In this document: positions 29,248-42,408 of the stretch, one piece after another | Position numbering within the stretch: position 1 is the first letter of the stretch | How the letters are laid out: the number at the start of each line of letters is the position of its first letter | Assembly: GCA_003213955.1 (NCBI GenBank) | Contig: QCMG01000003.1 | Location: forward strand, 9,769 to 73,768 | Source: Prochlorococcus sp. AG-418-M08 | GTDB lineage: Bacteria > Cyanobacteriota > Cyanobacteriia > PCC-6307 > Cyanobiaceae | Reading direction: 5' to 3' | Length of the DNA: 64,000 nucleotides | Notes under the pieces: generated by a model | The model's database searches: none | What the model was told of the DNA's origin: nothing | Seen by the model: the letters and a program-made list of their open reading frames with translations, nothing else | Translations under genes and position numbers: made by a program

Positions 29248-30435
29248 TTAAGAAATTTTATTTCTAAGTTTCCATTCCCCGTCTTCTTTTTTCCACAAAT
29301 GTTCACTTCTTCCCTTATCTATTATAATTTCGAATTCCGTTTCATCTAGAGAGATATAATCCAAGAAAAATTTATAATTTCTTTTTGGGAACTCCCCATC
29401 AAACTTTTTGACTAATGAAACTCCTTCTTCTCTTGTAATATGATGATTCCTTATTTCCGAAGAGGCATCATAAGTTGCTCTACCAATTCCATATTTTATA
29501 AATGTTGTGTAAAAGTGGAACCCATCAATTTTATCGTCAAGGGATGCATATGTTGAATAGGTGCCCTCAGACCTTATTGAATTATCTTTAAATCCACAAT
29601 TGTCAACTGCATAATAATAGTTCTCTTGAGGTATCCATTTTCTGTAATAACTCATAAAATGAACTTCTAAATTGTCTGATAAATTATTCAAGGGTTTATA
29701 CATATTTAAATCATTTTCAGAAATACCTTCATTGCTTAATTCGGAAAGGGTTAAACTCCCAATCCTCATCTCATCAACAGATCCCTTAAAAAAATTATTC
29801 GGCATTTTATTTTGATCCCAATCTAAATTACTACCACCCTCCGCTTGATTCTCTCCATAAAAAACTAAATCTATTCCATAATCCCTAGCGATCCTAGGCC
29901 CAATATATTTTTGCCCAATAATAAATGGTTGAAATGGATGAAGAAGATTTTTAAAAGCAAGTGACGTAAGTTTTTTATGAACAGATCTATCAGGTGTTAT
30001 TAATATATTATCGTGACCTGACTCTATCCACGCAACAAAATTTTTCCATCCGATGTCAGTATAACTATGAGGAGACCAAGTAACGGTAAGGGGATTCATT
30101 CCATATTTATTTTTAAGTATATGAGAGACATATGCACTATCTTTACCCCCGCTTCCTGGAACAACTACATCATAAGAACCATCTGATCTTCTATGCTTAT
30201 CAAGTAATATTAAAAGTTCTTCTTCTCTTTTCTGCCAATTTACGACATTGTATTTATATTCGTGATAGAGACATGCTGTACATATTCCATTTTTAAAACC
30301 TATGGTGTTTCTCTTCCTAGTTTGATTCTTTAAATTATTGTTTTTAAATTCAGGAATTGTACTAGGTCTTTGATTTGAAACTACACATTTTTTACAGTAA
30401 ATTACTTTTTCAGGCAGTCCCCAAAGTGCTTTCAT
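29248..30435 (-). CDS. N-acetyl sugar amidotransferase (WbuX/PseA/PtmG family, PP-loop)
   Basis: YCKKCV.SNQRP, C.AC, DVVVPGSGGKDS, YGEN.AE, YASLDDK.D and K.GIGRA..DAS.EIR. Confidence 0.93.
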   Translation of the reverse strand: MKALWGLPEKVIYCKKCVVSNQRPSTIPEFKNNNLKNQTRKRNTIGFKNGICTACLYHEYKYNVVNWQKREEELLILLDKHRRSDGSYDVVVPGSGGKDSAYVSHILKNKYGMNPLTVTWSPHSYTDIGWKNFVAWIESGHDNILITPDRSVHKKLTSLAFKNLLHPFQPFIIGQKYIGPRIARDYGIDLVFYGENQAEGGSNLDWDQNKMPNNFFKGSVDEMRIGSLTLSELSNEGISENDLNMYKPLNNLSDNLEVHFMSYYRKWIPQENYYYAVDNCGFKDNSIRSEGTYSTYASLDDKIDGFHFYTTFIKYGIGRATYDASSEIRNHHITREEGVSLVKKFDGEFPKRNYKFFLDYISLDETEFEIIIDKGRSEHLWKKEDGEWKLRNKIS

Positions 30436-30488
30436 AGAAGATTTTTTTTTATTTTAACTTAATAGAGAATAAAAATTAAAAAGGTAAA

Positions 30489-31082
30489 CTATCCTAATAA
30501 AATTTTTATTAATTCTCTACCTTTTCTTCCTGATAATTCAGGATGAAATTGGACTCCAATTTTATTATTTAGATTTGAAACTGCTACAAACTTTTTTTCA
30601 TTTATTTCATAAAATGCAAGCTCATCTTTCTCTCCAGTCCATAAGATCCCAAATGAATGGGAAAAATAATAATATCCACTCAAAAAAGACATCTCTTGAT
30701 GAATGAATTTTACATAGTTCCAGCCTGTATGAACTCTTTTTTGAATACTATTTGACGCAATAGAAATAACAGATTTATTACCGAAATTAAATCCTTTTAT
30801 AGAACCTTTTAAAGATTCATTACTATCTTTTTGTAGAAGGTGCATTCCCAAGCATATACCAAAAATCTTTTCAAAATTACTTTCAAGAATTAATTTCGTA
30901 ATACCTTTTTTGTCTAATTCATTTTTAACAAATTTAAAATTACCTACTCCTGGCAAAACAAGTATATCTGGTTTTATTGATAAATCCTGAATGTCGATCA
31001 GCCTCTGATTGAAAACTTTTTCAAATAATCTTTTTACATTAGCTGTGTTTGAAGAACTATAAGTTACAATTCCAATCCTCAT
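30489..31082 (-). CDS. HisH-like class I glutamine amidotransferase (WbuY/PtmE-type)
   Basis: LPGVG.F, GICLGMH (Cys nucleophile), YFSHS and QFHPE triad; ATG at 31082 overlaps the upstream TGA. Confidence 0.9.
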   Translation of the reverse strand: MRIGIVTYSSSNTANVKRLFEKVFNQRLIDIQDLSIKPDILVLPGVGNFKFVKNELDKKGITKLILESNFEKIFGICLGMHLLQKDSNESLKGSIKGFNFGNKSVISIASNSIQKRVHTGWNYVKFIHQEMSFLSGYYYFSHSFGILWTGEKDELAFYEINEKKFVAVSNLNNKIGVQFHPELSGRKGRELIKILLG

Positions 31083-31852
31083 TTTCTTACTTCCCATTTC
31101 CTTGATATTTCTTTTCTTATATTCTCTATATCTTTATAGTTATATATATAGTATTGAGATAAAGCTATTCCTTGAAATCCATAATTTAGAATATTTTCAT
31201 AATTGTAATTAATATGCATTGAACCAGAAATAATAGTATCAATATTTATTTTGCTCATTATTTTTAATTTAGATAAGGTAATGTCATTTACTTTTTTATT
31301 AACTCCATCAAAATCTATTAATCGTATCAAAACTTCAATCAAACCTTTGTCACAAAGACTTGATATGTAATCATATGCACTAAGATTGTGAGCTGGTTTA
31401 ATTAATTCTCTGCCGGCACTAATATAAAAATTAATATCACCATTATTTTCTACTCTTATTGATGGAGAAAAAACTATTGCTTGTGAACCAAATTCCTTAA
31501 ATAGTGTTTCTATTGGTATTTTATTTTGAAGAATTGCAGAATTTAAGGCTACTCTACAGGCTCCTTTTTCTAAAAGATTTTCAATTTCCTCTATAGAATT
31601 AATTCCACCTTGAACAGTAATTGGAATATGTATATTACGACAAATAAACTTTAAGAGATCTAAGTCAATATGAGTATCATATAAACTCCCTGTAATGTTG
31701 TTTATGTAAATTTCATCAGCTATAAAATCATCATTTCTTTTAGAGAGAAATTCGTCTAAATCTTCAATTACCCGAAGCCCTTCAAATCTCTTCCCTTTAA
31801 TTACTTTGTTTCCCTTAATATCAATTTTAGCAATAATTCTTTTAGTAGTCAT
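31079..31852 (-). CDS. HisF-like TIM barrel (WbuZ-type)
   Basis: KRII..IDI.G.KVIKG..FEGLR, PITVQGGI and VALNS; divergent C-terminal half. Confidence 0.85.
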   Translation of the reverse strand: MTTKRIIAKIDIKGNKVIKGKRFEGLRVIEDLDEFLSKRNDDFIADEIYINNITGSLYDTHIDLDLLKFICRNIHIPITVQGGINSIEEIENLLEKGACRVALNSAILQNKIPIETLFKEFGSQAIVFSPSIRVENNGDINFYISAGRELIKPAHNLSAYDYISSLCDKGLIEVLIRLIDFDGVNKKVNDITLSKLKIMSKINIDTIISGSMHINYNYENILNYGFQGIALSQYYIYNYKDIENIRKEISRKWEVRK

Positions 31853-32163: not shown

Positions 32164-33669
32164 TTGGTTTATATGTTAATAAATGCTCTAAAATCAATAA
32201 AAATAAAAGCTACAAATAAAGCTAAAAAATTATCCAGACCCTTCACGACTATAAGAGTTCTTGGTGATATTATTGATCATGCCTCTGAGAATAAAAAAGA
32301 ACTCAAAAATATTATAAATAGTGGTCAATGGTTGGCTAGCTATATTCCTTATATGAAGAATAAAACTGGGGTTATTGTAGGTAATTTTCTATCTGTAAAT
32401 TATGGTATTAGAAATGATACAAGTATTTTAGTTGGGTTAGTTGATAGCAACTTTAATGTAAAAGGAGGAAAATTATTTAAATTAAAACTAAGAGAAATTC
32501 TTGTTCTAAACAGAAATGATCTTCAAGAATTATCTTCAGATAATGAAGTGGAATATTGTATTGTATGCGCTATAAATTCCAAAATTCCAAAAAACCGAGG
32601 GGAGAATGAGTTGAGATTTTGGGGGACATGGAGTGAATTTTCTTCCTTTGTTCATTCAATGCCATTACCTAATTCAATAAATATATTGAGAAAAAGTTTG
32701 AAAAGACTCAAGAATATACCTCTTGAAAGAATGCATTACCCTAATTCATCCAATGAAGTATTACATTTTGGCCCATTAAATAAGAAATTCAACATTAAAC
32801 AAAGAGGAGACTTATCAGGCAAAATATACGCACAATATGGTTATACAGTTCTGCTTAATCAAGAAAAACAAATCACATCATGCTTTCATAACTCTAATTT
32901 CGAAAGAAAAACTAGGCTGACAAATATTAACAACAACTGGATAAGACATGTAGTACCAATACCTCCTTTAGAAAATATTGATCTAAAATTATTTTTTGGT
33001 GAAGCTTGCTCAAAAGGATCAACTTTTTTAGCTTCTCTTTTTGAAAAACAAAATATCCATTCATCCCCTTGTTGTTTAGAAGAGAAAAAAATAACTGTTG
33101 ATCCAAGTGATTCTTTTAATGCAAGCAAAATATTTGATAAAAAGGTTTCATCGAGAAATGATAGATGGTTGATATTCACTCCAATAGAAGGTTTGCACGA
33201 TATTGGATATATTTCAATATTTTATGAAAATGAAAAAAATAAAAGATGTTTTGATTCGGTTCATTCTCAGGCTTTCAAAAATAATCCAAAGGAAAAAAAA
33301 AGGTTAATTAACAAACCTAAAAGAACTTTAAAATTTGCTCCATTTATCATTACCGAAAAAGATATTAATCATTCATTTCTTGTTGTATTAGGGGAATGGC
33401 AACGTGATATAAAGATTAGAGTAAGGATATATGCAGCTGATGATCCAAATTACGAGACTTTGATTTTTGAAAAAATTACACGTCAAGAAGTTAAATACAT
33501 TAATTTACAAGAAAAGTTAGATCTTAAATATAAAAAGAGCTTACTAACTAAGACATTTTTATGCCAAATAGAAAGTGAGGAAGGAAATCTAGATGGATAT
33601 TTAATAAATGCACATGAAAATAAATATGGAGTTCATAAATTGGCAATAGATCATTTAACTGGTGGTTAA
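32164..33669 (+). CDS. Hypothetical protein (about 500 aa), no family recognised
   Basis: Long ORF with normal composition. TTG start in the track; ATG at 32173 is also plausible. Confidence 0.6.
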   Translation: MVYMLINALKSIKIKATNKAKKLSRPFTTIRVLGDIIDHASENKKELKNIINSGQWLASYIPYMKNKTGVIVGNFLSVNYGIRNDTSILVGLVDSNFNVKGGKLFKLKLREILVLNRNDLQELSSDNEVEYCIVCAINSKIPKNRGENELRFWGTWSEFSSFVHSMPLPNSINILRKSLKRLKNIPLERMHYPNSSNEVLHFGPLNKKFNIKQRGDLSGKIYAQYGYTVLLNQEKQITSCFHNSNFERKTRLTNINNNWIRHVVPIPPLENIDLKLFFGEACSKGSTFLASLFEKQNIHSSPCCLEEKKITVDPSDSFNASKIFDKKVSSRNDRWLIFTPIEGLHDIGYISIFYENEKNKRCFDSVHSQAFKNNPKEKKRLINKPKRTLKFAPFIITEKDINHSFLVVLGEWQRDIKIRVRIYAADDPNYETLIFEKITRQEVKYINLQEKLDLKYKKSLLTKTFLCQIESEEGNLDGYLINAHENKYGVHKLAIDHLTGG

Positions 33670-33837: not shown

Positions 33838-34791
33838 TTAGTTTTTTATCAAATTATTAATAATTCTGCTTAAATAAGACTTAATCCTTGGTCTAACTTT
33901 TTTATTAGTTTTCCAAGAATTTTTATTATAAAATTTATTACAATTAAATATTAATTTTTCATGGTAACTTTTAATCCATGCACTGTTAGGGGAAAATACT
34001 GTACCTCGCCATTTAGTTTTTTTAGCAATATCAAAAGGCAAAGCTCTGAAATATTTATTAAAAGTATGATATAAAATTATATATTGTTCTAAAGAACCAA
34101 AGCCATAACTTTTATAATATTTCTCTTCAAAAGGTAGAGATTCCTTTTCTTCAGCATAAGCGAGTTTCAGTATAGGATTTGTATGAGGACTATCATGATA
34201 AGAAAGAGTTCCTTGTTCATCTCTTTTAGTAATAGATTCTAAAAATTTTCTAATTATTTTCATATTTCCTGCAAAATATAAGTCTTCAAAATAAGTGCCC
34301 TTTGAATTAAATTTTGGTACTAAGATAGTATCTTTTTCATAATTTTCCTTTAAGAAATCATAAATCTCTTGAAGATTTATTATTAGATCAGTTCTAATTT
34401 TAATTACATAATTAATGTCCTTTCTTATTTTTTTAAGTCCAAATAAACAACCATAAAATTGATAAAACATATTATTTTTTGATACGTAAGAGTCATTTAT
34501 CCACCATTTATCTGGTAATTTGGGAACCTTATTTTTATTAAATTTATAAATCTCAATTGAATTATCCTCATATTCAAGAATCTCATCATCCCAAGTACTT
34601 AAAATAATTTGATTAAAAAGATGTCCATATTTTTTTAATAATTTTTTTATTGATTTTCTACAATCATATGAAACTACGTCACCAATTTCTAAATTTTTGA
34701 GGTCAGCACATGCATTTTTACCTGATCTACCTACACTTTTTAATGGACCTTGAATTAATAATGCTACTTTAAAATTATTAGTATTTTTCAT
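33838..34791 (-). CDS. WavE-like lipopolysaccharide synthesis protein
   Basis: LLIQGP, IILSTW, N...Q....L.GL, YVIKIRTD and D.YFAG. Confidence 0.7.
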   Translation of the reverse strand: MKNTNNFKVALLIQGPLKSVGRSGKNACADLKNLEIGDVVSYDCRKSIKKLLKKYGHLFNQIILSTWDDEILEYEDNSIEIYKFNKNKVPKLPDKWWINDSYVSKNNMFYQFYGCLFGLKKIRKDINYVIKIRTDLIINLQEIYDFLKENYEKDTILVPKFNSKGTYFEDLYFAGNMKIIRKFLESITKRDEQGTLSYHDSPHTNPILKLAYAEEKESLPFEEKYYKSYGFGSLEQYIILYHTFNKYFRALPFDIAKKTKWRGTVFSPNSAWIKSYHEKLIFNCNKFYNKNSWKTNKKVRPRIKSYLSRIINNLIKN

Positions 34792-35287
34792 TCTGAGAAT
34801 TTTTCGAGATCTTCATAAAATAACATATTAAATAGTGGCCACTTAATACTCAAATTTTATTCTGCCAATGCCTATTAAATTATTACGAGTAATTATTATT
34901 AAATCGTCTAACTATAAAGTAGAAGTTTCGACCAGTATCAAGAGCCAAAGGTTTTAATTTTATGGTTTAATTTCATATAGAAAATAAAAACAGATCAAGT
35001 ATTAAGAATTTATATTTTTGAATGGGACTTTTTATTAACTAACTAATTAGGTTAATGAGATTGTTTTCTATAAAAAAAAATTTAAAATTATTGTAGCTAT
35101 AGAAAAATTATTTAAAGATTAAAAGTAATTATTAGTTTATCTAACTGCTAAGAGTGCTCTAAAATTTGAGTAATTTCTTAAATTTATATATTTTTCTGCT
35201 TTATTGCTTCAATTTTTAAAAAGAAAAAATTAATAATATTTATAAATGTAATAGAATTAATAATTAATAATTTAGTTTTTCAATAAT

Positions 35288-35809
35288 ATGAAATTTTTTA
35301 TCCTTGATGTAGATGGGGTTATGACTAATGGGAATTTTTATTATAGCGTTGAAGGAAAAGTTTTAAAAAGTTTTGGACCTGATGATAGTGATGCATTATC
35401 AATACTAAAGAAATACATGAGCATAGAATTTATTACAGGAGATAAAAAGGGCTTTAATATTAGTAAAAAAAGAATTACTGATGACATGGGTTACAAACTA
35501 AGCTTAGTTAGTACTATGAGAAGAAAAGAATGGATACAAGAAAAATACAATTTAAATGATGTAATATACATGGGTGATGGCATATTTGATGTACTTGTTA
35601 TGAATGCGGTTGGATATTCAATTGCACCTGCTAATGCCGACAAAAATGCTATAGATAAAGCTGATTTCGTTACAGAAAGAATAGGAGGTAACAGAGCTGT
35701 TTCAGAAGCTTGTTTGCATATTCTTAAAAAGTTTTATGGTTTACAATCATTGGAAGATGAAATTAATTCTAGGAATAAATTAGATACTGGGGAATGGAAT
35801 ATATGCTGA
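35288..35809 (+). CDS. KdsC/YrbI-like HAD phosphatase
   Basis: LDVDGVMT.G..YYS.EG...K.F...D, ITGD, YMGD..FD, PANA and GG..AV.E. Confidence 0.85.
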   Translation: MKFFILDVDGVMTNGNFYYSVEGKVLKSFGPDDSDALSILKKYMSIEFITGDKKGFNISKKRITDDMGYKLSLVSTMRRKEWIQEKYNLNDVIYMGDGIFDVLVMNAVGYSIAPANADKNAIDKADFVTERIGGNRAVSEACLHILKKFYGLQSLEDEINSRNKLDTGEWNIC

Positions 35810-36966
35810 GGAGTTTCCTAGAGAGGACAATAAAAAGTAATAAGATCACCCTATTGGGAGTTGGCCCAATGAGTTTAAATTGTGTAAATGCTACCATAGC
35901 AATATCAAATCAGTATTCTCTTCCTATTTTTTTGATAGCGAGTAGAAGGCAAATTGACTCAAAAGATTTTAATGGTGGTTACGTAAATAATTGGGATACA
36001 AAACAATATTCAGATTATGTATTAAATAGAGATAAGGGAGGGAAAGTAATTTTAGCTAGAGATCATGGAGGGCCGTGGCAAAATCCTTTTGAAGTCGAGA
36101 AGAAATTAAGTTTATCAATGGCATTAGATTCTGCTAAAAAGTCTTTTAAAGAAGATATAGATTGCGGTTTTAAAATATTACATATAGATACTTGCATAGA
36201 TATACATTGTGATGTTAAAGCCAAGGAGTCTTTGGAAAGATTATTTGACTTATATGAATTTTGTTGGAATTATGCTCAATCTAAAAACAAAGAAGTAATT
36301 TTTGAAATTGGTACTGAAGAACAAAGTGGCAGTACAAATAAAATATTAGAGTTGGAATATAACTTAAATGAGATTACAAACTTTTGCGATAACAACTTTC
36401 TCCCAAGACCAGCTTTTGTAGTTGTACAAACTGGTACAAAAGTTATGGAAACAAGGAATGTAGGCTCATTTGATAAACCTTTAAGAGTTGAGAATGAAAT
36501 TCCTGCCCTCATTCAAGTACCTAAAATAGTAGAAATCTGCAGAAAATATAATATTTTTATAAAAGAGCATAATGCTGATTATTTGTCTGATGATGCCTTA
36601 AAGTGGCATCCTAGATTAGGCATTCATGCTTCAAATGTTGCCCCAGAATTTGGAGTAACTGAAACGCTATCTTTTATTAAAATTTTAGAAGACAATAATC
36701 AAAAAAAATTAGCTGATGAGTTTCTAAGCATATCTTTTCAATCTGATTACTGGAGAAAATGGATGTTAAAAGATTCAAAAGCTGATGATAGGCAGAGAGC
36801 TATTATAGGAGGTCATTATATATTTGGAACGAATAAGTTTAAAGAAATCAAAAAGAGGGCAACATTTGATTTACTAAAAAAAGATATAGATTTAGATTCT
36901 TATTTAGAGGATAATATAAAAAAAAGTATCATTAGGTATTTAAAAAATTTTAGATTAATTAAATAG
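35803..36966 (+). CDS. GatZ/KbaZ-like (tagatose-6-phosphate 4-epimerase-type) TIM barrel
   Basis: ASRRQID, RDHGGPWQ, LHIDT, EIGTEE, VVQTGT, KEHNADY and NVAPEFG parallel the GatZ motifs GDHLGP, HLD, GTE, VVQPG, EAHSTDY and KVGP. Start is 35794 or 35803. Confidence 0.75.
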   Translation: MLRSFLERTIKSNKITLLGVGPMSLNCVNATIAISNQYSLPIFLIASRRQIDSKDFNGGYVNNWDTKQYSDYVLNRDKGGKVILARDHGGPWQNPFEVEKKLSLSMALDSAKKSFKEDIDCGFKILHIDTCIDIHCDVKAKESLERLFDLYEFCWNYAQSKNKEVIFEIGTEEQSGSTNKILELEYNLNEITNFCDNNFLPRPAFVVVQTGTKVMETRNVGSFDKPLRVENEIPALIQVPKIVEICRKYNIFIKEHNADYLSDDALKWHPRLGIHASNVAPEFGVTETLSFIKILEDNNQKKLADEFLSISFQSDYWRKWMLKDSKADDRQRAIIGGHYIFGTNKFKEIKKRATFDLLKKDIDLDSYLEDNIKKSIIRYLKNFRLIK

Positions 36967-36968
36967 AG

Positions 36969-37793
36969 ATGAAAAGAGTAGCAACAATTATCTTGAATAG
37001 AAACTTACCTGAACCAACGGAAAAGTTATATGAACATATCTATAATAATGAGAATAATCTCACAGATATATTTGTGATAGAAGCAGGTTCAGATAAAGAA
37101 TTGGTTTCTAAGTATTGTACTTGGCATGTAAAAAAAGACGATGTTTTAGTCAAAGGCCTGAGGTATTGCAGAGGTATGAATTATGCCTTATTTGAATTAA
37201 GTAAAAGTAAAAAGTTTGAATCATATGATGCATTTTTTTTACTTACAAATGACACAATTTTATGTCAAAAAAATACCCTCGAGAGACTTCTTGAAATCCT
37301 TGATAATCATAAGCAACTTGGAATAATATCTCCTTGTTCTGAAAAATGGGGAGAAAAATATCTTCTCTTAGAAGAAAAAACAAAGTATTTTTGGTTTATT
37401 CATAATAATGCATTTATGCTAAGAAAAGAGTTTGTAGAGGGAATAGCAATTAAAAAAAACCCAAGCTATTTAAATTTCGTATTTGATGGGAATAATTTCA
37501 GAGGCTTCCTCTCGGAAAGTGAATTGATTGCTAAGGCATACGCAAATAATTGGGCAGCAGGAGTGACAACTAAAGTTTATGCCGAGGAAAATGAATCTTA
37601 TTTATTGAATCATTCTGACCTAATAAAAACAGAGACTTATGAGGAGAATCTTAAACTTTATATAGAGGAGGGATTGCTTTGGATAAAAGAAAAATATGGA
37701 TTTGACAGTCATTGGACAATGCATCAATATGTAAAGTCTTTCTATGATAAATTTTTTGATTACAACCCAGAGTATTTAAAATACAAAATTTAA
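36969..37793 (+). CDS. GT2-like (GT-A fold) glycosyltransferase
   Basis: ATIILNRN, FVIEAGSD, GMNYAL, LLTNDT and GIISP. Confidence 0.65.
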   Translation: MKRVATIILNRNLPEPTEKLYEHIYNNENNLTDIFVIEAGSDKELVSKYCTWHVKKDDVLVKGLRYCRGMNYALFELSKSKKFESYDAFFLLTNDTILCQKNTLERLLEILDNHKQLGIISPCSEKWGEKYLLLEEKTKYFWFIHNNAFMLRKEFVEGIAIKKNPSYLNFVFDGNNFRGFLSESELIAKAYANNWAAGVTTKVYAEENESYLLNHSDLIKTETYEENLKLYIEEGLLWIKEKYGFDSHWTMHQYVKSFYDKFFDYNPEYLKYKI

Positions 37794-37798
37794 ATTAT

Positions 37799-38143
37799 AT
37801 GGATGTTATTGAAAAACCATGGGGCAAAGAAGAAATTTTGCAAATCAATAGTAAATATATGGTTAAAAGATTAACAATGTATAAAGGTCATCGTTGTAGT
37901 CTGCAGTATCACTTAAAAAAAATAGAAACTATTTTTGTTTTAAAAGGAAAACTCAACATACTATCCGGAAAAGATAAAAATTCTCTTGAATCTGTGATAT
38001 ATGAAGATGGCCAATTTATAACTTTGTTTCCTGGAAATATTCATAGAATGGAAGCAATTGAAGATTGTGTTTACCTAGAGGCATCTACTCCTGAAATGGA
38101 TGATGTTGTAAGAATAAAAGACGATTACAATAGAATAAATTAA
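37799..38143 (+). CDS. Cupin (mannose-6-phosphate isomerase type II C-terminal-like)
   Basis: EKPWG.E, SLQYH..K.ET and PG..HR..A. Confidence 0.85.
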   Translation: MDVIEKPWGKEEILQINSKYMVKRLTMYKGHRCSLQYHLKKIETIFVLKGKLNILSGKDKNSLESVIYEDGQFITLFPGNIHRMEAIEDCVYLEASTPEMDDVVRIKDDYNRIN

Positions 38144-39708
38144 TGTCTTATAAAGTCATAATTCCTACTGCAGGACTTGGAAGTAGATTGGGAAAATTGA
38201 CAAAGAATATAAATAAATCACTTATTAGTGTTTCCAATAAACCGATTATATCTTGGCAATTTGAAAAATTTAATGATGATTGTGAAATAATTATTCCGTT
38301 GGGATACAAAGGAAAGATTGTTAAAGAATTTTTAGAGCTAGTATATCCAAAAAGAAAAATAAAATTTGTTGAGATCCATAATTTTGAAGGGCCAAATTCT
38401 GGCTTAGGTCATACTCTATTAAAATGTGAAGAATATCTAAAAGAAAAATTTATATTTTTAGCTTGCGATTGTATGTTTAAAGAAAAGATTCCAGATTGTA
38501 ATACCAATTGGTTAGGTTATTCTTCATCAATTCCAAAAAATAATAACTATAGAATGGTTGAAATCACAAATGGGCAAGCAAGAAAAATTCATGAAAAAGA
38601 TCAAAAACAATTGCCGAATTTTTATCCATATATTGGCATTTGTAATATTATAAATTTCGAATTATTTTGGGATTCCTTGAGAAATAGTCTTGATAGATCA
38701 GTAGAGGAAGGTGAAGCTTTTGGAATAAATGCTATATTACAGAAAAATATAGAATTTACAGTATTACCTTTTACATGGTCTGATACTGGAAGTTTAAAAG
38801 GTTTAGAAGATACAAGAATTAACTATAAACTTAAAAATGAGTTAAATATCTTAGAAAAAGATAATGAGCACATTTGGTTTATCGATAATAAGGTTGTTAA
38901 GTTTTCTACTGATAAACAATTTATTCAAAATAGAGTAAAAAGAGTAAGTTTTCTTAAAGGGTATGTTCCAGATATCATAGATTACTCAGAAAATATGTAT
39001 TTATACAAAAAATTCAAAGGTGAGGTTTTTTCCTCTCTGAATGACATTAATAAATTCAAAAAATTACTTATTTTTAGCAAGAAATTCTGGAAAAAATATG
39101 AATTAGAAAATTTTAAGTATAGTGAATTTGAAAATTTTTGCAAAACTTTCTATAAAGATAAAACTATTCAAAGAACTAAAGATTTTTATAAAAATTTTAA
39201 AAGATTTGATAACTTAGATTACATTAACGGTATAAAAGTAAACCGTTTTAATTCAATTATGGGTTTAATTAACTGGGAAGATATATGTAAAGGTATTCCA
39301 GTTAGATTTCATGGGGATTTTCACTTTGAAAACATACTATTTAGTAAAAATGAATTTATGTTTATTGATTGGAGGCAAGATTTTGGCGGCCATCTAGAAT
39401 ATGGAGATATTTATTATGATTTATCTAAATTATTACATGGAATAATAGTTAATCATTCAATAATAAAACAAAAAAAATTTAAGGTTGATTGGAATAAAAA
39501 TAAACTTAATTATTCAATTAATAAATATGAATTCCAATATGATTGCGAAAAAGTATTTTATGATTGGCTTGATAAGGAAAATTTTAATATTAAAAAAGTA
39601 AACATAATAACAGGACTAATTTTTCTTAATATAGCTTCTCTACATCATTATCCATACTGTCTACTTTTATATGGATTAGGAATAGAAAAGCTTGATCAGA
39701 ATGTATAA
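38143..39708 (+). CDS. Bifunctional nucleotidyltransferase + APH/choline-kinase-like phosphotransferase
   Basis: N-terminal IPTAGLGSRL....K.L, ACD and W.DTG; C-terminal FHGDFHFENI (Brenner motif), FIDWR and GD.YYDL.KL. Confidence 0.85.
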   Translation: MSYKVIIPTAGLGSRLGKLTKNINKSLISVSNKPIISWQFEKFNDDCEIIIPLGYKGKIVKEFLELVYPKRKIKFVEIHNFEGPNSGLGHTLLKCEEYLKEKFIFLACDCMFKEKIPDCNTNWLGYSSSIPKNNNYRMVEITNGQARKIHEKDQKQLPNFYPYIGICNIINFELFWDSLRNSLDRSVEEGEAFGINAILQKNIEFTVLPFTWSDTGSLKGLEDTRINYKLKNELNILEKDNEHIWFIDNKVVKFSTDKQFIQNRVKRVSFLKGYVPDIIDYSENMYLYKKFKGEVFSSLNDINKFKKLLIFSKKFWKKYELENFKYSEFENFCKTFYKDKTIQRTKDFYKNFKRFDNLDYINGIKVNRFNSIMGLINWEDICKGIPVRFHGDFHFENILFSKNEFMFIDWRQDFGGHLEYGDIYYDLSKLLHGIIVNHSIIKQKKFKVDWNKNKLNYSINKYEFQYDCEKVFYDWLDKENFNIKKVNIITGLIFLNIASLHHYPYCLLLYGLGIEKLDQNV

Positions 39709-39716
39709 TTAATATT

Positions 39717-40046
39717 ATGAATATTAAGGAAAAATCATTAGCTTACTTCAAGTCTTTCTCTAATAAAAATCTAGAGGAATTGAAAATTTTTTTTAGTGAG
39801 GATGTTTATTTAAGAGATTGGGAAATTGAAGCTAAAGGTATTAAGAAAGTTTTAGAAGCAAATAAAAATATCTTCGATTCTGTTGAAAGTATTAATGTAG
39901 AACCAATTAATATTTACGAAAATAAAAATTTTATTATTGCTGAATTAGAAATCCTAGTCAATCAAATTGATAAATTACTCGTTGTTGATATTATTAGTTT
40001 TGATTCATCATTCAGGATTAATTCAATAAAAGCATATAAAGGGTAG
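39717..40046 (+). CDS. NTF2/SnoaL-like protein
   Basis: YF..FS.K.LE.L...F.EDV.L.DW, with C-terminal I..I.AY; 109 aa. Confidence 0.8.
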   Translation: MNIKEKSLAYFKSFSNKNLEELKIFFSEDVYLRDWEIEAKGIKKVLEANKNIFDSVESINVEPINIYENKNFIIAELEILVNQIDKLLVVDIISFDSSFRINSIKAYKG

Positions 40047-40194
40047 TAAATTTTTTGCAAATCCAAGCTAAATTTTTCATTTACACAATAAAATAATTTC
40101 ATGGTAGAAAATCCTTATAATTAGCCTTGAAAAGTACTTATAAAAATTATCTAATTATATTCCAGACAAATTTATTTAACTAGTAATATTTTGA

Positions 40195-40267
40195 TGGAGC
40201 CAAGCGGACTTGAACCGCTGACCCCCTGCATGCCATGCAGGTGCTCTACCAACTGAGCTATGGCCCC
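40195..40267 (-). tRNA. tRNA-Ala (anticodon GGC)
   Basis: Reverse complement GGGGCCATAGCTCAGTTGGTAGAGCACCTGCATGGCATGCAGGGGGTCAGCGGTTCAAGTCCGCTTGGCTCCA folds as a 73-nt cloverleaf with a G3-U70 pair and GGC anticodon; CCA is not encoded. Confidence 0.98.
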
Positions 40268-40633
40268 ATATCCTAAGACAACAGTTATAGAGATTTATCC
40301 AAAGATTTCTTTAGTAACTGCCGATATTTTTATAGTACTTTATAGAGTTTGGCAAATGGATTCTGCGCCTAAAAATGCTCTCAGAGATTTACAAGTTGTA
40401 GCATGCTTTATGGTACTTATTAAAGATATTACTCACCTTCTTTTAAATCGATAATTGTGCATTGTAGGGCTTTAAATTTTACTATTCTACTTGTTTTTTT
40501 AAAGATTTTTAACTTTCATTAATTCAATCTAATATCTCTGACTTTTTATTTAGCATGGTGTTGATTAATTACTAAATCTAAAAAGTAAAAAATTTAATAT
40601 TATAAATGTTAGGATTAGTAAATTTGAAAATTG

Positions 40634-41461
40634 ATGTCTACAGTAGTTTTCACTTCCAATTCTTTGAGACATAAAGCATTTGCAGCAATAATAAATAACA
40701 ATCCAAATATCGATTTATTAAAAGTTTTTCATGAAGACGGGTCCCCCCTTAATGAATTGATTAAGAAAAGGGAAAAAAATATTATTGAGTTAGGACATCT
40801 AGAAGCAAGATCTATTGCGGAAAAAGATTTTTTTGAATTATATATTAATTCTCAAAACAAAATACAAGCTATCTCAGAAATTGTTCCAAGATCCTGGTTC
40901 TCCAGTAAAGCTTGTCTTGAGATTTTAAAAGAATTAAATCCAAGTCAAATTTTGGTCTATGGAACTTCAATAATAAAAGGTGAAATAATTAATTATTTTA
41001 AAAAGAAGATTTTAAATCTACATCTAGGTCTGAGCCCTTTTTATAGGGGTGCAGGTACTAATTATTTTCCCTTTGTTAATAATGAACCTGAATATGCAGG
41101 AAGTACTTTTATGTATCTTGATCAAGGCATTGATACTGGGGAAATCATTCATCAATTTAGACCATTAATTAATATAAATGATTCATTTCATCAATTTTCA
41201 AATAGATTTCTAATTAGTTCTTTTAAGACCTACTCAAAAATTGCTGAGAGAAATTTGAAATTTGGTTTATGTGAACCATTTTCAACTAATAATATTAAAA
41301 ATAAAAAAAGGCTAGTCTATAAGAAATCTGATTTTACTAGTGAAAGCGTAATTAAATTGTATAAGAATCTAAAAAACGGTATGCTTGATAAATATCTTCT
41401 TAATAAAGAAGAGAAATGCAATAATGTCCCTATTCTCCAACAAGATTGGCTTGAAGTTTAG
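40634..41461 (+). CDS. N10-formyl-THF-dependent formyltransferase (sugar N-formyltransferase-like)
   Basis: YGTSIIK, NLHLGLSPFYRG.GTN and LDQGIDTG.II.Q. Confidence 0.85.
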   Translation: MSTVVFTSNSLRHKAFAAIINNNPNIDLLKVFHEDGSPLNELIKKREKNIIELGHLEARSIAEKDFFELYINSQNKIQAISEIVPRSWFSSKACLEILKELNPSQILVYGTSIIKGEIINYFKKKILNLHLGLSPFYRGAGTNYFPFVNNEPEYAGSTFMYLDQGIDTGEIIHQFRPLININDSFHQFSNRFLISSFKTYSKIAERNLKFGLCEPFSTNNIKNKKRLVYKKSDFTSESVIKLYKNLKNGMLDKYLLNKEEKCNNVPILQQDWLEV

Positions 41462-41466
41462 AATTG

Positions 41467-42408
41467 ATGAAAGCATTAATGTACCATTATGTAAGGAAAT
41501 TCAATTCTAATTTTCCTTTCTCAAAACATAAGAAAATTGAAGATTTTGTAAATGAAATAAAAAACTTAATTAGCTTAGGCTACAAATTTAAAAATGTAAC
41601 AGAAGCAATTAAATCCCTTGAAACAGAGGAAGATACTCAGAAGATAATATTACTAACTTTCGATGATGGACTAAAAGACCATTTTAATGTAGCTAAGATA
41701 TTAAACAATTTAGGTATTAAAAAAGCGACATACTATATACCTACTAAACCATATTTAGACAACAAAATTCTTCATGTCCATAAGGCACATTTAATATTAT
41801 CTAAAGAGGGAGAAAAATCATTAGACTTACTTTTTGAAGCATGTAATAATTTAGGAATTTCATTATCAGATCATAGTAACTATAAGGTTGAAAAAGAAAA
41901 ATTCAAAAATGCTTATTCAAGATGGGATACCAATTCAAAAATAAAAGAGTTTAAAAGTTTAATTAATTATTATGGATCAATTGGAGTTAGGGATTTACTA
42001 CTAGATGAAATAATAAGCCAAATAGGAATTAAATTAAAAGCAAATGATTTATATCTTTCATTTAATGAGATTAAAGAAATATCTGAAATGGGATTTGAAA
42101 TAGGAAGTCATGGAGTAAGCCATACGTTACTAGCAAGATTAGATAAAAATACCCAAAAAGAAGAATTATATAATTCAAAGAAATTACTCGAAGAATTAAC
42201 TTCTAGAAATATAAATTCATTTTGCTATCCTTATGGTGGTAAAAAAAGTTATAACAAATATACTTTAGAATTATTTAAAGAAGTTGATTATCACAATGCC
42301 ATATCAGTAGAAAATAAAGATATAAATAAAGAAACTATTAAAAATAATTTTTTTGAAATTCCTAGATATGATTGCAATCAGATTAAAGATTTATTTTTAA
42401 AGAAATAA
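41467..42408 (+). CDS. Polysaccharide deacetylase (CE4/NodB)
   Basis: LMYHYVR, LTFDDG..DH, IGSHG.SH..L, FCYPYG and PR.DC. Confidence 0.9.
   Translation: MKALMYHYVRKFNSNFPFSKHKKIEDFVNEIKNLISLGYKFKNVTEAIKSLETEEDTQKIILLTFDDGLKDHFNVAKILNNLGIKKATYYIPTKPYLDNKILHVHKAHLILSKEGEKSLDLLFEACNNLGISLSDHSNYKVEKEKFKNAYSRWDTNSKIKEFKSLINYYGSIGVRDLLLDEIISQIGIKLKANDLYLSFNEIKEISEMGFEIGSHGVSHTLLARLDKNTQKEELYNSKKLLEELTSRNINSFCYPYGGKKSYNKYTLELFKEVDYHNAISVENKDINKETIKNNFFEIPRYDCNQIKDLFLKK

Follow-up and report, generated by a model that had tools for sequence, protein, structure and literature searches.

Results and Discussion

We describe a cassette of six intact open reading frames (ORFs) on the + strand of a 64,000-nucleotide window of the genome of Prochlorococcus sp. 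AG-418-M08 (contig QCMG01000003.1, positions 9,769 to 73,768), where it occupies positions 35288-40046 of the window. Its first five genes encode a KdsC-type HAD phosphatase, a GatZ-like barrel protein, a GT2-like glycosyltransferase, a small cupin and a nucleotidyltransferase/kinase fusion, and they recur together in surface-glycan loci of many phyla. We propose that this cassette converts a central ketose phosphate into an unusual monosaccharide, which is activated as a nucleoside diphosphate (NDP) sugar and passed to the dedicated GT2-like transferase for use in a surface glycan, which we infer to be an O-antigen or a capsule. We put the probability of this reading at roughly one half.

A conserved cassette in surface-glycan loci

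The junctions between the six genes measure, in gene order, -16, +2, +5, -1 and +8 nt, with overlaps given as negative values. An original prediction, made from the sequence alone, had described six packed genes whose junctions all overlap or span less than 10 nt, and the ORF coordinates agree with it exactly. Its domain labels were also borne out, that is, a KdsC-type HAD, a GatZ-like protein, a GT2-like protein, a cupin, a nucleotidyltransferase-kinase fusion and, weakly, a SnoaL-like protein.

For comparison we examined 65 loci, 61 of them from named genomes, recovered by a scan with an alignment of the GT2-like protein, and four from metagenome assemblies. ORFs in these loci were called mechanically. 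The order HAD, GatZ-like, GT2-like, cupin, fusion is kept in nearly all of the 61 loci. Carriers include Prochlorococcus, Synechococcus, Pelagibacteraceae (SAR11), Chlorobium ferrooxidans, Legionella, Massilia, Pseudoduganella, Nitrotoga, Luminiphilus and Polynucleobacter, together with Planctomycetota, Riflebacteria, Oscillospiraceae and Synergistaceae. Such an arrangement is far beyond chance. With the same order in about 60 loci, the genes form one conserved biosynthetic unit and not a chance cluster, as had been predicted. However, the unit comprises the first five genes and not all six, for only about 12 of 62 loci have a homologue of the SnoaL-like protein. In high-GC loci, long ORFs at first sight joined the cupin to the kinase, or the GatZ-like protein to the transferase; we rejected both fusions as ORF-calling artefacts, since the parts lie in different frames.

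The fusion, the GatZ-like and the GT2-like protein each have well over 1,000 homologue clusters in public data, at 45-65% identity. Clustered at 90% identity, a protein collection holds more than 1,300 clusters of the fusion and approximately 1,600 of the GT2-like protein. When the single fusion protein was used as query against genome contigs no relatives were returned; the GT2-like alignment did find loci. Its occurrence is sporadic: within the host genus the cassette is present in 3 of 201 species-level genomes, and effectively in 1 of 401 across the phylum. No homologue of the GT2-like protein was found in plasmid and phage collections. A literature search, which did not cover subscription journals, found no paper on the cassette.

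The flanks of the cassette always consist of glycan-assembly genes, but these differ between loci. Among them are a GT-B-like protein of 405 aa with a Wzx-like flippase, a GtrB-like GT2 accompanied by large polytopic proteins, and exporters of the MsbA-like or Wzm/Wzt kind; WbsX, ManC, acetyltransferases and sugar dehydrogenases or epimerases are found as well. Moreover, the glycosyltransferases that follow the cassette are of differing types in different loci, as expected of a module that supplies a sugar. The cassette is horizontally mobile and has spread through surface-glycan islands. In one complete genome (L069:7292-9465) it starts directly after Wzm/Wzt, with the C-terminal domain of Wzt present. 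This proximity links the locus to ABC-transporter-dependent O-polysaccharide, where terminal residues can control chain length.

The five core proteins

The first gene (35288..35809, +) encodes a protein of 173 aa that is predicted to be a capless (C0) HAD sugar-phosphate phosphatase of the KdsC/YrbI type. TIGR01670 (KdsC/YrbI) is by far its best-matching family (E = 9.4e-22, 77.6 bits, below the cut-off of 106.95), and the KdsC and KDN-9-phosphate phosphatase models rank next; PF08282 is matched above its gathering score. The catalytic motifs are kept (DVDGV at residues 7-11 and GDGIFD, of the form GDGxxD, near residue 96) and the size fits the capless type. The gene is found beside the cassette in 54 of the 65 loci.

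The second gene (35794..36966, +) encodes 390 aa, a distant GatZ/KbaZ-like protein of the class II aldolase fold. By sequence alone the family match is faint (PF08013, 3.7e-4, 19.7 bits, below the gathering score of 26.7), and homologues at about 60% identity have precomputed PF08013 matches. A profile built from 26 homologues retrieves both GatZ-type structures in the Protein Data Bank (PDB), and hhalign pairs the protein with E. coli GatZ at 94.6% probability. The AlphaFold model (pLDDT 84) gave the same picture in Foldseek, where E. coli GatZ (2fiq; TM 0.73, E = 1.5e-13) and 3txv (E = 4.8e-14) came ahead of all class II fructose-bisphosphate aldolases. GatZ/KbaZ proteins have been reported to be 4-epimerases acting on fructose-6-phosphate and tagatose-6-phosphate, with Asp87, His88, Glu171 and His257 proposed as catalytic residues and a Zn-dependent retro-aldol/aldol epimerisation at C4 proposed as the mechanism by which fructose-6-phosphate is turned into tagatose-6-phosphate (PMC11907403). 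In the hhalign alignment D90/H91, E175 and H259 of the cassette protein fall on GatZ D87/H88, E171 and H257, and all four are invariant in the 26 sequences; the position of GatZ E44 is occupied by Ile. Fold and catalytic set thus support the assignment to the GatZ family made in the original prediction. From the model and these residues we predict a metal-dependent retro-aldol/aldol enzyme, either a ketose-phosphate C4 epimerase or something related to it.

Catabolic genes, such as those for a GatY/KbaY-type aldolase or a phosphotransferase system (PTS), are absent from the window and from the 65 related loci. In E. coli, by comparison, the gat operon includes a GatY-type aldolase, a PTS, a tagatose kinase and a regulator. 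Given this absence and the glycan-assembly context, the idea of a non-catabolic use of GatZ is well founded.

The third gene (36969..37793, +) encodes a soluble protein of 274 aa outside any Pfam family, which we describe as a GT2-like glycosyltransferase of the GT-A fold. Searches of Pfam, NCBIfam and PDB sequences returned no match. Its model has moderate confidence (pLDDT 70), and the best Foldseek matches are SpsA (GT2, E = 2.4e-5), DPM synthase and PcManGT, with probability 1.00 and TM 0.45-0.52. These matches point to a GT-A fold whose N-terminal half would bind the nucleotide. The alignment displays GT2-style motifs (ILNRN, EAGSD, LLTNDT and FDGxNFRG..SESE), with an invariant N94-D95-T96, containing a single Asp, at the DxD position and SESE in place of the DED of remote relatives. 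An exhaustive profile search found such remote relatives to carry NDV and classical DED motifs, and one of them matches PF00535 weakly (20.2 bits, below gathering). The label GT2-like therefore appears right at the level of fold and motif. Across phyla the protein shows about 63% identity and is almost always 274 aa long.

Weak Foldseek matches of the 274-aa model to CMP-Kdo and CMP-Kdn synthetases were also seen. A KdsA/KdsC/KdsB-like trio, in which this protein would act as a CMP-sugar synthetase, was rejected, as its sequence motifs follow GT2 and not KdsB. One remote relative (P0494, 421 aa; L071:1043-2308) is fused to a small HAD-like N-terminal domain and lies on a short contig. The contexts of the remote relatives, all on short contigs, offered nothing informative.

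The fourth gene (37799..38143, +) encodes a small cupin of 114 aa, of the type II phosphomannose isomerase (PMI) type. It matches PF01050 (2.5e-9, 37.8 bits, above the gathering score of 23.6) and the C-terminus of TIGR01479 (GMP_PMI), and aligns with the C-terminus of a ManC enzyme at 27% identity over 109 aa (E = 9e-9). The motifs PWG, SLQxH..E, H and DD(I/V)VR are common to both. On these comparisons the whole of the cupin is homologous to the type II PMI domain of ManC, and the protein is predicted to be an aldose-ketose isomerase. By clustering it is present in 62 of the 65 loci, the remainder being truncated contigs or ORF-calling artefacts.

The fifth gene (38143-39708, +) encodes a fusion of 521 aa, with a predicted sugar-1-phosphate nucleotidyltransferase domain at the N-terminus (approximately aa 1-232; 38143..38840, +) and an APH-family kinase domain at the C-terminus (approximately aa 233-521; 38841..39708, +). 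The transferase domain carries the IPTAGxGSRL motif (AGLGSRL), which has the GxGxR(L) signature. It scores 18.7 bits against NTP_transferase (PF00483), just below the gathering score of 21.2, and matches Arch_glmU, AglF, RmlA and MurU in NCBIfam. Against the PDB, the family profile best matches glucose-1-phosphate thymidylyltransferase (3hl3, residues 5-224, E = 2.9e-8), followed by glucose-1-phosphate cytidylyltransferase and HddC (PDB 5xhw/6jq8, E ~2e-6); LicC aligns with residues 3-73 only. The thymidylyltransferase alignment thereby takes in the sugar-binding subdomain. Judged in this way, the domain looks like the sugar-1-phosphate transferases and not like LicC.

The kinase domain matches APH (PF01636) with 27.2 bits, above the gathering score of 23.2. 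All 23 family members match PF01636 and none matches Choline_kinase (PF01633). The catalytic loop HGDFHFEN (HxDxxxxN) and IDWRQDF, with the metal-binding Asp, are invariant. A sequence search of the PDB with a profile of the domain found no relative, and none of known specificity could be detected. We predict an anomeric sugar kinase.

Optional members and two cassette types

The last gene of the cassette (39717..40046, +) encodes an accessory SnoaL/NTF2-like protein of 109 aa. Its match to SnoaL_2 (PF12680) stays below gathering (1.5e-4, 22.7 bits against 27), and no significant or informative PDB sequence match was found. In the loci that have a homologue, its position inside the cassette varies. 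A more frequent companion is a methyltransferase of 378 aa, which by ORF clustering directly follows the fusion in 44 of the 65 loci (e.g. L007:10737-11891) and contains the C-methyltransferase C-terminal domain PF08484, above gathering. This gene is absent from the window and from the whole host genome (1.66 Mb, 98.8% complete). A database protein (P0052, 905 aa) fuses the kinase protein with a C-methyltransferase-like protein. Lastly, a few loci have an aldose 1-epimerase next to the cassette, suggesting that the kinase receives a free reducing sugar.

A second cassette type (type B) was found in eight loci (L021, L033, L034, L038, L043, L044, L046 and L058). In it the cupin is duplicated (a bicupin of about 250 aa), the fusion has diverged, and a dehydrogenase of the AroE family (TIGR00507, 211 bits against a cut-off of 200) is usually present. 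Comparison of the two types gives just 33% identity for the cupin and for the fusion. The HAD, the GatZ-like protein, the GT2-like protein and the methyltransferase show 64, 65, 64 and 49% identity, and are as similar between types as within them (64-66% for the first three). Likewise, in FastTree trees without support values, the type B loci form a single clade for the cupin and the fusion (1 change), and are scattered for the HAD, GatZ-like, GT2-like and methyltransferase proteins (6-7 changes). Therefore, the cupin and the nucleotidyltransferase/kinase appear to be a pair that exists in two old, interchangeable versions, which the rest of the cassette does not track.

Proposed pathway and alternative readings

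From the observed gene content, synteny, folds, catalytic residues and glycan context we infer the substrates, the order of the steps and the identity of the sugar as follows. The GatZ-like enzyme, with its metal-bound Asp/His/Glu/His site, would cleave a 2-ketose omega-phosphate between C3 and C4 and join it again, with epimerisation at C4 or with some other remaking of the bond. The substrate could be fructose-6-phosphate, giving tagatose-6-phosphate, or equally a heptulose or pentulose phosphate undergoing the same reaction. The KdsC-type HAD would then take off the terminal phosphate, an irreversible step that would pull the equilibrium, and the PMI-like cupin would turn the ketose into an aldose, for instance tagatose into talose, the 4-epimer of mannose; these two steps may occur in either order. 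The APH-type kinase domain would phosphorylate the anomeric hydroxyl, the nucleotidyltransferase domain fused to it would form the NDP-sugar, and the 274-aa GT2-like enzyme would pass the sugar to a conserved acceptor, such as a lipid-linked primer. The SnoaL-like protein may be an optional tailoring or helper enzyme, in a slot that would elsewhere be taken by the C-methyltransferase-like protein or the AroE-family dehydrogenase. We favour an aldose as the end product because the ketose phosphates that could feed the GatZ-like enzyme are central metabolites, so that an isomerase would be needed only downstream.

Several observations weigh against this scheme. Structural alignments show no more than 14-17% identity between the GatZ-like protein and GatZ, and the family of the former has invariant arginines of its own (R51, R52 and R89), suggesting that the substrate may carry another anionic group. 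KdsC-type phosphatases are known to act on ulosonate phosphates of 8 or 9 carbons, not on hexose phosphates. No relative of known specificity could be detected for the kinase, and a C-methyltransferase-like partner normally requires an enolisable keto sugar. Moreover, the HAD, GatZ-like, GT2-like and methyltransferase proteins do not co-diverge with the two versions of the cupin and nucleotidyltransferase/kinase pair, which is unexpected if the GT2-like enzyme closely reads the product of that pair.

The best placed of the alternatives, which we nevertheless think unlikely, is the one originally predicted: epimerisation of a ketose-6-phosphate would be followed by phosphorylation of the anomeric C2, loss of the phosphate at C6 and activation to an NDP-ketose (with tagatose or a heptulose as the sugar), from which the GT2-like protein would transfer the ketose. 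The intact catalytic set of the GatZ-like protein is in keeping with it. So is the HAD, since the known substrates of its type, going by the family names, are all 2-keto sugars with a terminal phosphate, which would make a ketose omega-phosphate a natural substrate. The optional partners (the PF08484 C-methyltransferase-like, NTF2/SnoaL-like and AroE-family proteins) would also suit chemistry beside a free keto group. To our knowledge, little has been established on how ketoses are activated for polysaccharides. However, a C2-phosphorylated product leaves the near-universal PMI-like cupin without a role, and we consider it less likely than an aldose. The transferase domain also resembles transferases of aldose 1-phosphates, an aldose 1-epimerase accompanies some cassettes, and we know of no precedent for an APH-type kinase or a sugar-1-phosphate-like transferase acting at the tertiary anomeric centre of a ketose. 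We think it doubtful that the cassette provides a nucleotide-activated ketose (NDP-tagatose or an NDP-heptulose) with its first dedicated pathway or, relatedly, that a monosaccharide not yet recorded in bacterial glycans is displayed on plankton such as Prochlorococcus, SAR11 and Polynucleobacter. A dedicated NDP-ketose pathway, if real, would settle a long-standing question, namely by what means ketoses come to be incorporated into bacterial polysaccharides.

Next, and improbable too, is a two-armed arrangement of the sucrose-phosphate synthase type. Here the GatZ-like protein would supply a ketose phosphate as acceptor, the GT2-like protein would glycosylate it with an NDP-sugar and the HAD would then dephosphorylate the glycoside, the NDP-sugar coming from the cupin and nucleotidyltransferase/kinase arm or from the common pool. 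Parallels would be SPS/SPP, TPS/TPP, GpgS/GpgP and mannosylfructose-phosphate synthase/phosphatase. This would account for the evolution of the HAD, GatZ-like and GT2-like proteins as a block that is independent of the type of cupin and nucleotidyltransferase/kinase. The methyltransferase, however, does not co-diverge with that pair either, and the block pattern may mean only that the pair exists in two interchangeable versions. A GT2-like protein that is unusually uniform for a polysaccharide transferase, and the HAD-like N-terminus of its remote relative P0494, would also agree with the arrangement, but the latter fusion lies on a short contig. The setting fits poorly, as the cassette always lies among genes for polymer assembly, next to flippases, ABC exporters and additional transferases, and not in osmolyte loci; a free disaccharide could not enter a polymer without being activated again.

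We give still less credence to a pathway of the LicA/LicC type, in which the fusion would phosphorylate a non-anomeric hydroxyl of a small alcohol, polyol or sugar and form a CDP-activated phosphodiester donor, so that a phospho-substituent is placed on the glycan as with phosphocholine, CDP-glycerol, CDP-ribitol or CDP-6-glucitol. LicC (1jyk, 1.7e-6) is indeed the best single-sequence PDB match of the transferase domain, some source databases label family members as choline kinase, and inositol-1-phosphate cytidylyltransferase models match weakly. However, when the family profile is used, sugar-1-phosphate transferases give the best PDB matches and the only ones over the full length, LicC covering the N-terminal ~70 residues, and the Choline_kinase Pfam model matches none of the 23 members. 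Nor does a conserved LicD-type or CDP-alcohol transferase stand beside the cassette. The CDP-ketose and CDP-polyol routes known to us use an existing sugar phosphate directly, with neither kinase nor phosphatase.

Finally, that the genes serve catabolism of the tagatose/galactitol type, or are unrelated and stand together by chance, is hardly credible: source databases do name the GatZ-like protein 'tagatose-bisphosphate aldolase non-catalytic subunit', but the aldolase, PTS, tagatose kinase and regulator of the gat operon are missing nearby, and synteny with transferase, nucleotidyltransferase and glycan genes holds in about 60 loci.

The synthesis of an NDP-activated aldose remains our preferred reading. 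The carriers of the cassette include ecologically dominant bacteria, and its plankton carriers are abundant in both marine and freshwater environments. In the ocean, surface chemistry governs recognition by phages and grazers, and naming the sugar would contribute a further building block to it. Neither the 274-aa transferase nor the kinase domain has a close characterised relative, and the cassette could supply enzymes for the synthesis of rare-sugar nucleotides.

Genomic setting in AG-418-M08

The window is AT-rich, with a GC content of about 25-30%. Upstream of the cassette, a spacer of 496 nt (34792..35287) separates its first gene from a divergent WavE-like gene (33838-34791, -) and is presumed to be the promoter region. 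A scan for consensus promoters found fewer sites than in shuffled sequence, and the promoter and terminator scan was uninformative. None of the 65 other loci has a homologue of the WavE-like gene beside the cassette (E < 1e-5). A functional link between the two was rejected, as no neighbour from the window recurs beside the cassette elsewhere, and the pairing looks local and not functional. Downstream, a tRNA-Ala(GGC) gene (40193-40268, -) lies 147 nt past the last gene of the cassette. Genes for tRNAs are common island borders, and this one may be the insertion point of the cassette or of the island.

The surroundings are themselves a glycan island, with a pair of glutamine amidotransferase and HisF-like genes, GT4 transferases, a formyltransferase, a polysaccharide deacetylase and a UbiA-type transferase. 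An ORF of 395 aa with no Pfam match is followed by the class I glutamine amidotransferase and the HisF-like cyclase (29248-31852, -); this trio presumably resembles amidotransferase sets of the WbuX/WbuY/WbuZ type, which belong to acetamidino-sugar pathways. An ORF of 501 aa (32164-33669, +), with no Pfam match and no predicted membrane helix, separates the amidotransferase genes from the WavE-like gene. Just past the tRNA gene, the formyltransferase-domain protein and the polysaccharide deacetylase are encoded 2 nt apart (40631-42408, +) and are likely another sugar-tailoring pair of the island.

Comparison with known systems

The closest relatives of the barrel enzyme are GatZ/KbaZ and the tagatose-6-phosphate 4-epimerases of Agrobacterium and Sinorhizobium (PF08013; 2fiq, 3txv; PMC11907403), with which the GatZ-like protein has in common the fold and the Asp-His, Glu and His positions. 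The context of GatZ/KbaZ is the catabolism of galactitol or N-acetylgalactosamine, whereas that of the cassette protein is anabolic glycan synthesis. Our reading would thus give an anabolic role to a family known only from sugar catabolism.

The GDP-mannose pathway offers a parallel for the middle of the cassette. In the bifunctional ManC (PMI-GMP) a PMI-type cupin adjoins a sugar-1-phosphate nucleotidyltransferase, as it does here, where the two genes overlap by 1 nt. In the cassette the cupin is a protein of its own, and the order is the reverse of that of the ManC domains. The ManB mutase step would be replaced in the cassette by a phosphatase and an anomeric kinase. For the fusion itself the counterparts are the salvage pairs AmgK-MurU and NahK-GlmU, in which an APH-fold kinase is followed by a sugar-1-phosphate nucleotidyltransferase; MurU models match the transferase domain of the cassette weakly. 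Unlike these separate salvage enzymes, the two domains are fused in the cassette and would serve a de novo route.

As in the Kdo pathway (KdsD, KdsA, KdsC, KdsB), a KdsC-family phosphatase would act downstream of a barrel enzyme whose product is the omega-phosphate of a 2-keto sugar. However, the cassette has no KdsA/NeuB-type synthase and no CMP-ulosonate synthetase, its 274-aa protein carrying the motifs of GT2 and not those of KdsB.

The route to GDP-D-glycero-alpha-D-manno-heptose (GmhA, HddA, GmhB, HddC) starts from a ketose omega-phosphate, which an isomerase turns into an aldose; C1 is then phosphorylated, the terminal phosphate removed and the nucleotidyl group attached. The proposed pathway follows the same logic, and the transferase domain of the cassette is homologous to HddC. 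The likeness to HddA, GmhB and HddC had been pointed out in the original prediction. As regards the logic of kinase, phosphatase and nucleotidyltransferase it stands; as for the enzymes it is an analogy and not homology, with an APH-type kinase in place of a GHMP kinase, a KdsC-type in place of a GmhB-type phosphatase and a PMI-type cupin in place of the SIS isomerase GmhA. Beyond the heptose route, the cassette has an extra GatZ-type step, a built-in GT2-like transferase and the fusion of kinase and transferase.

A further parallel is found in the GDP-octose pathway of lincomycin biosynthesis, which employs the transaldolase LmbR, the isomerase LmbN, the kinase LmbP, the phosphatase LmbK and the guanylyltransferase LmbO (PMC4351081). 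There, too, an enzyme acting on a C-C bond of ketose phosphates is followed by isomerase, kinase, phosphatase and nucleotidyltransferase, five functions that correspond one-to-one with five of the activities proposed for the cassette. The lincomycin enzymes are not homologous to those of the cassette, except perhaps the nucleotidyltransferases, and they serve a Streptomyces antibiotic, not a surface glycan. Taken together, the nucleotide-sugar pathway proposed here is built from an unprecedented set of enzyme families, and would represent a third, independently assembled version of the isomerase-kinase-phosphatase-nucleotidyltransferase strategy.

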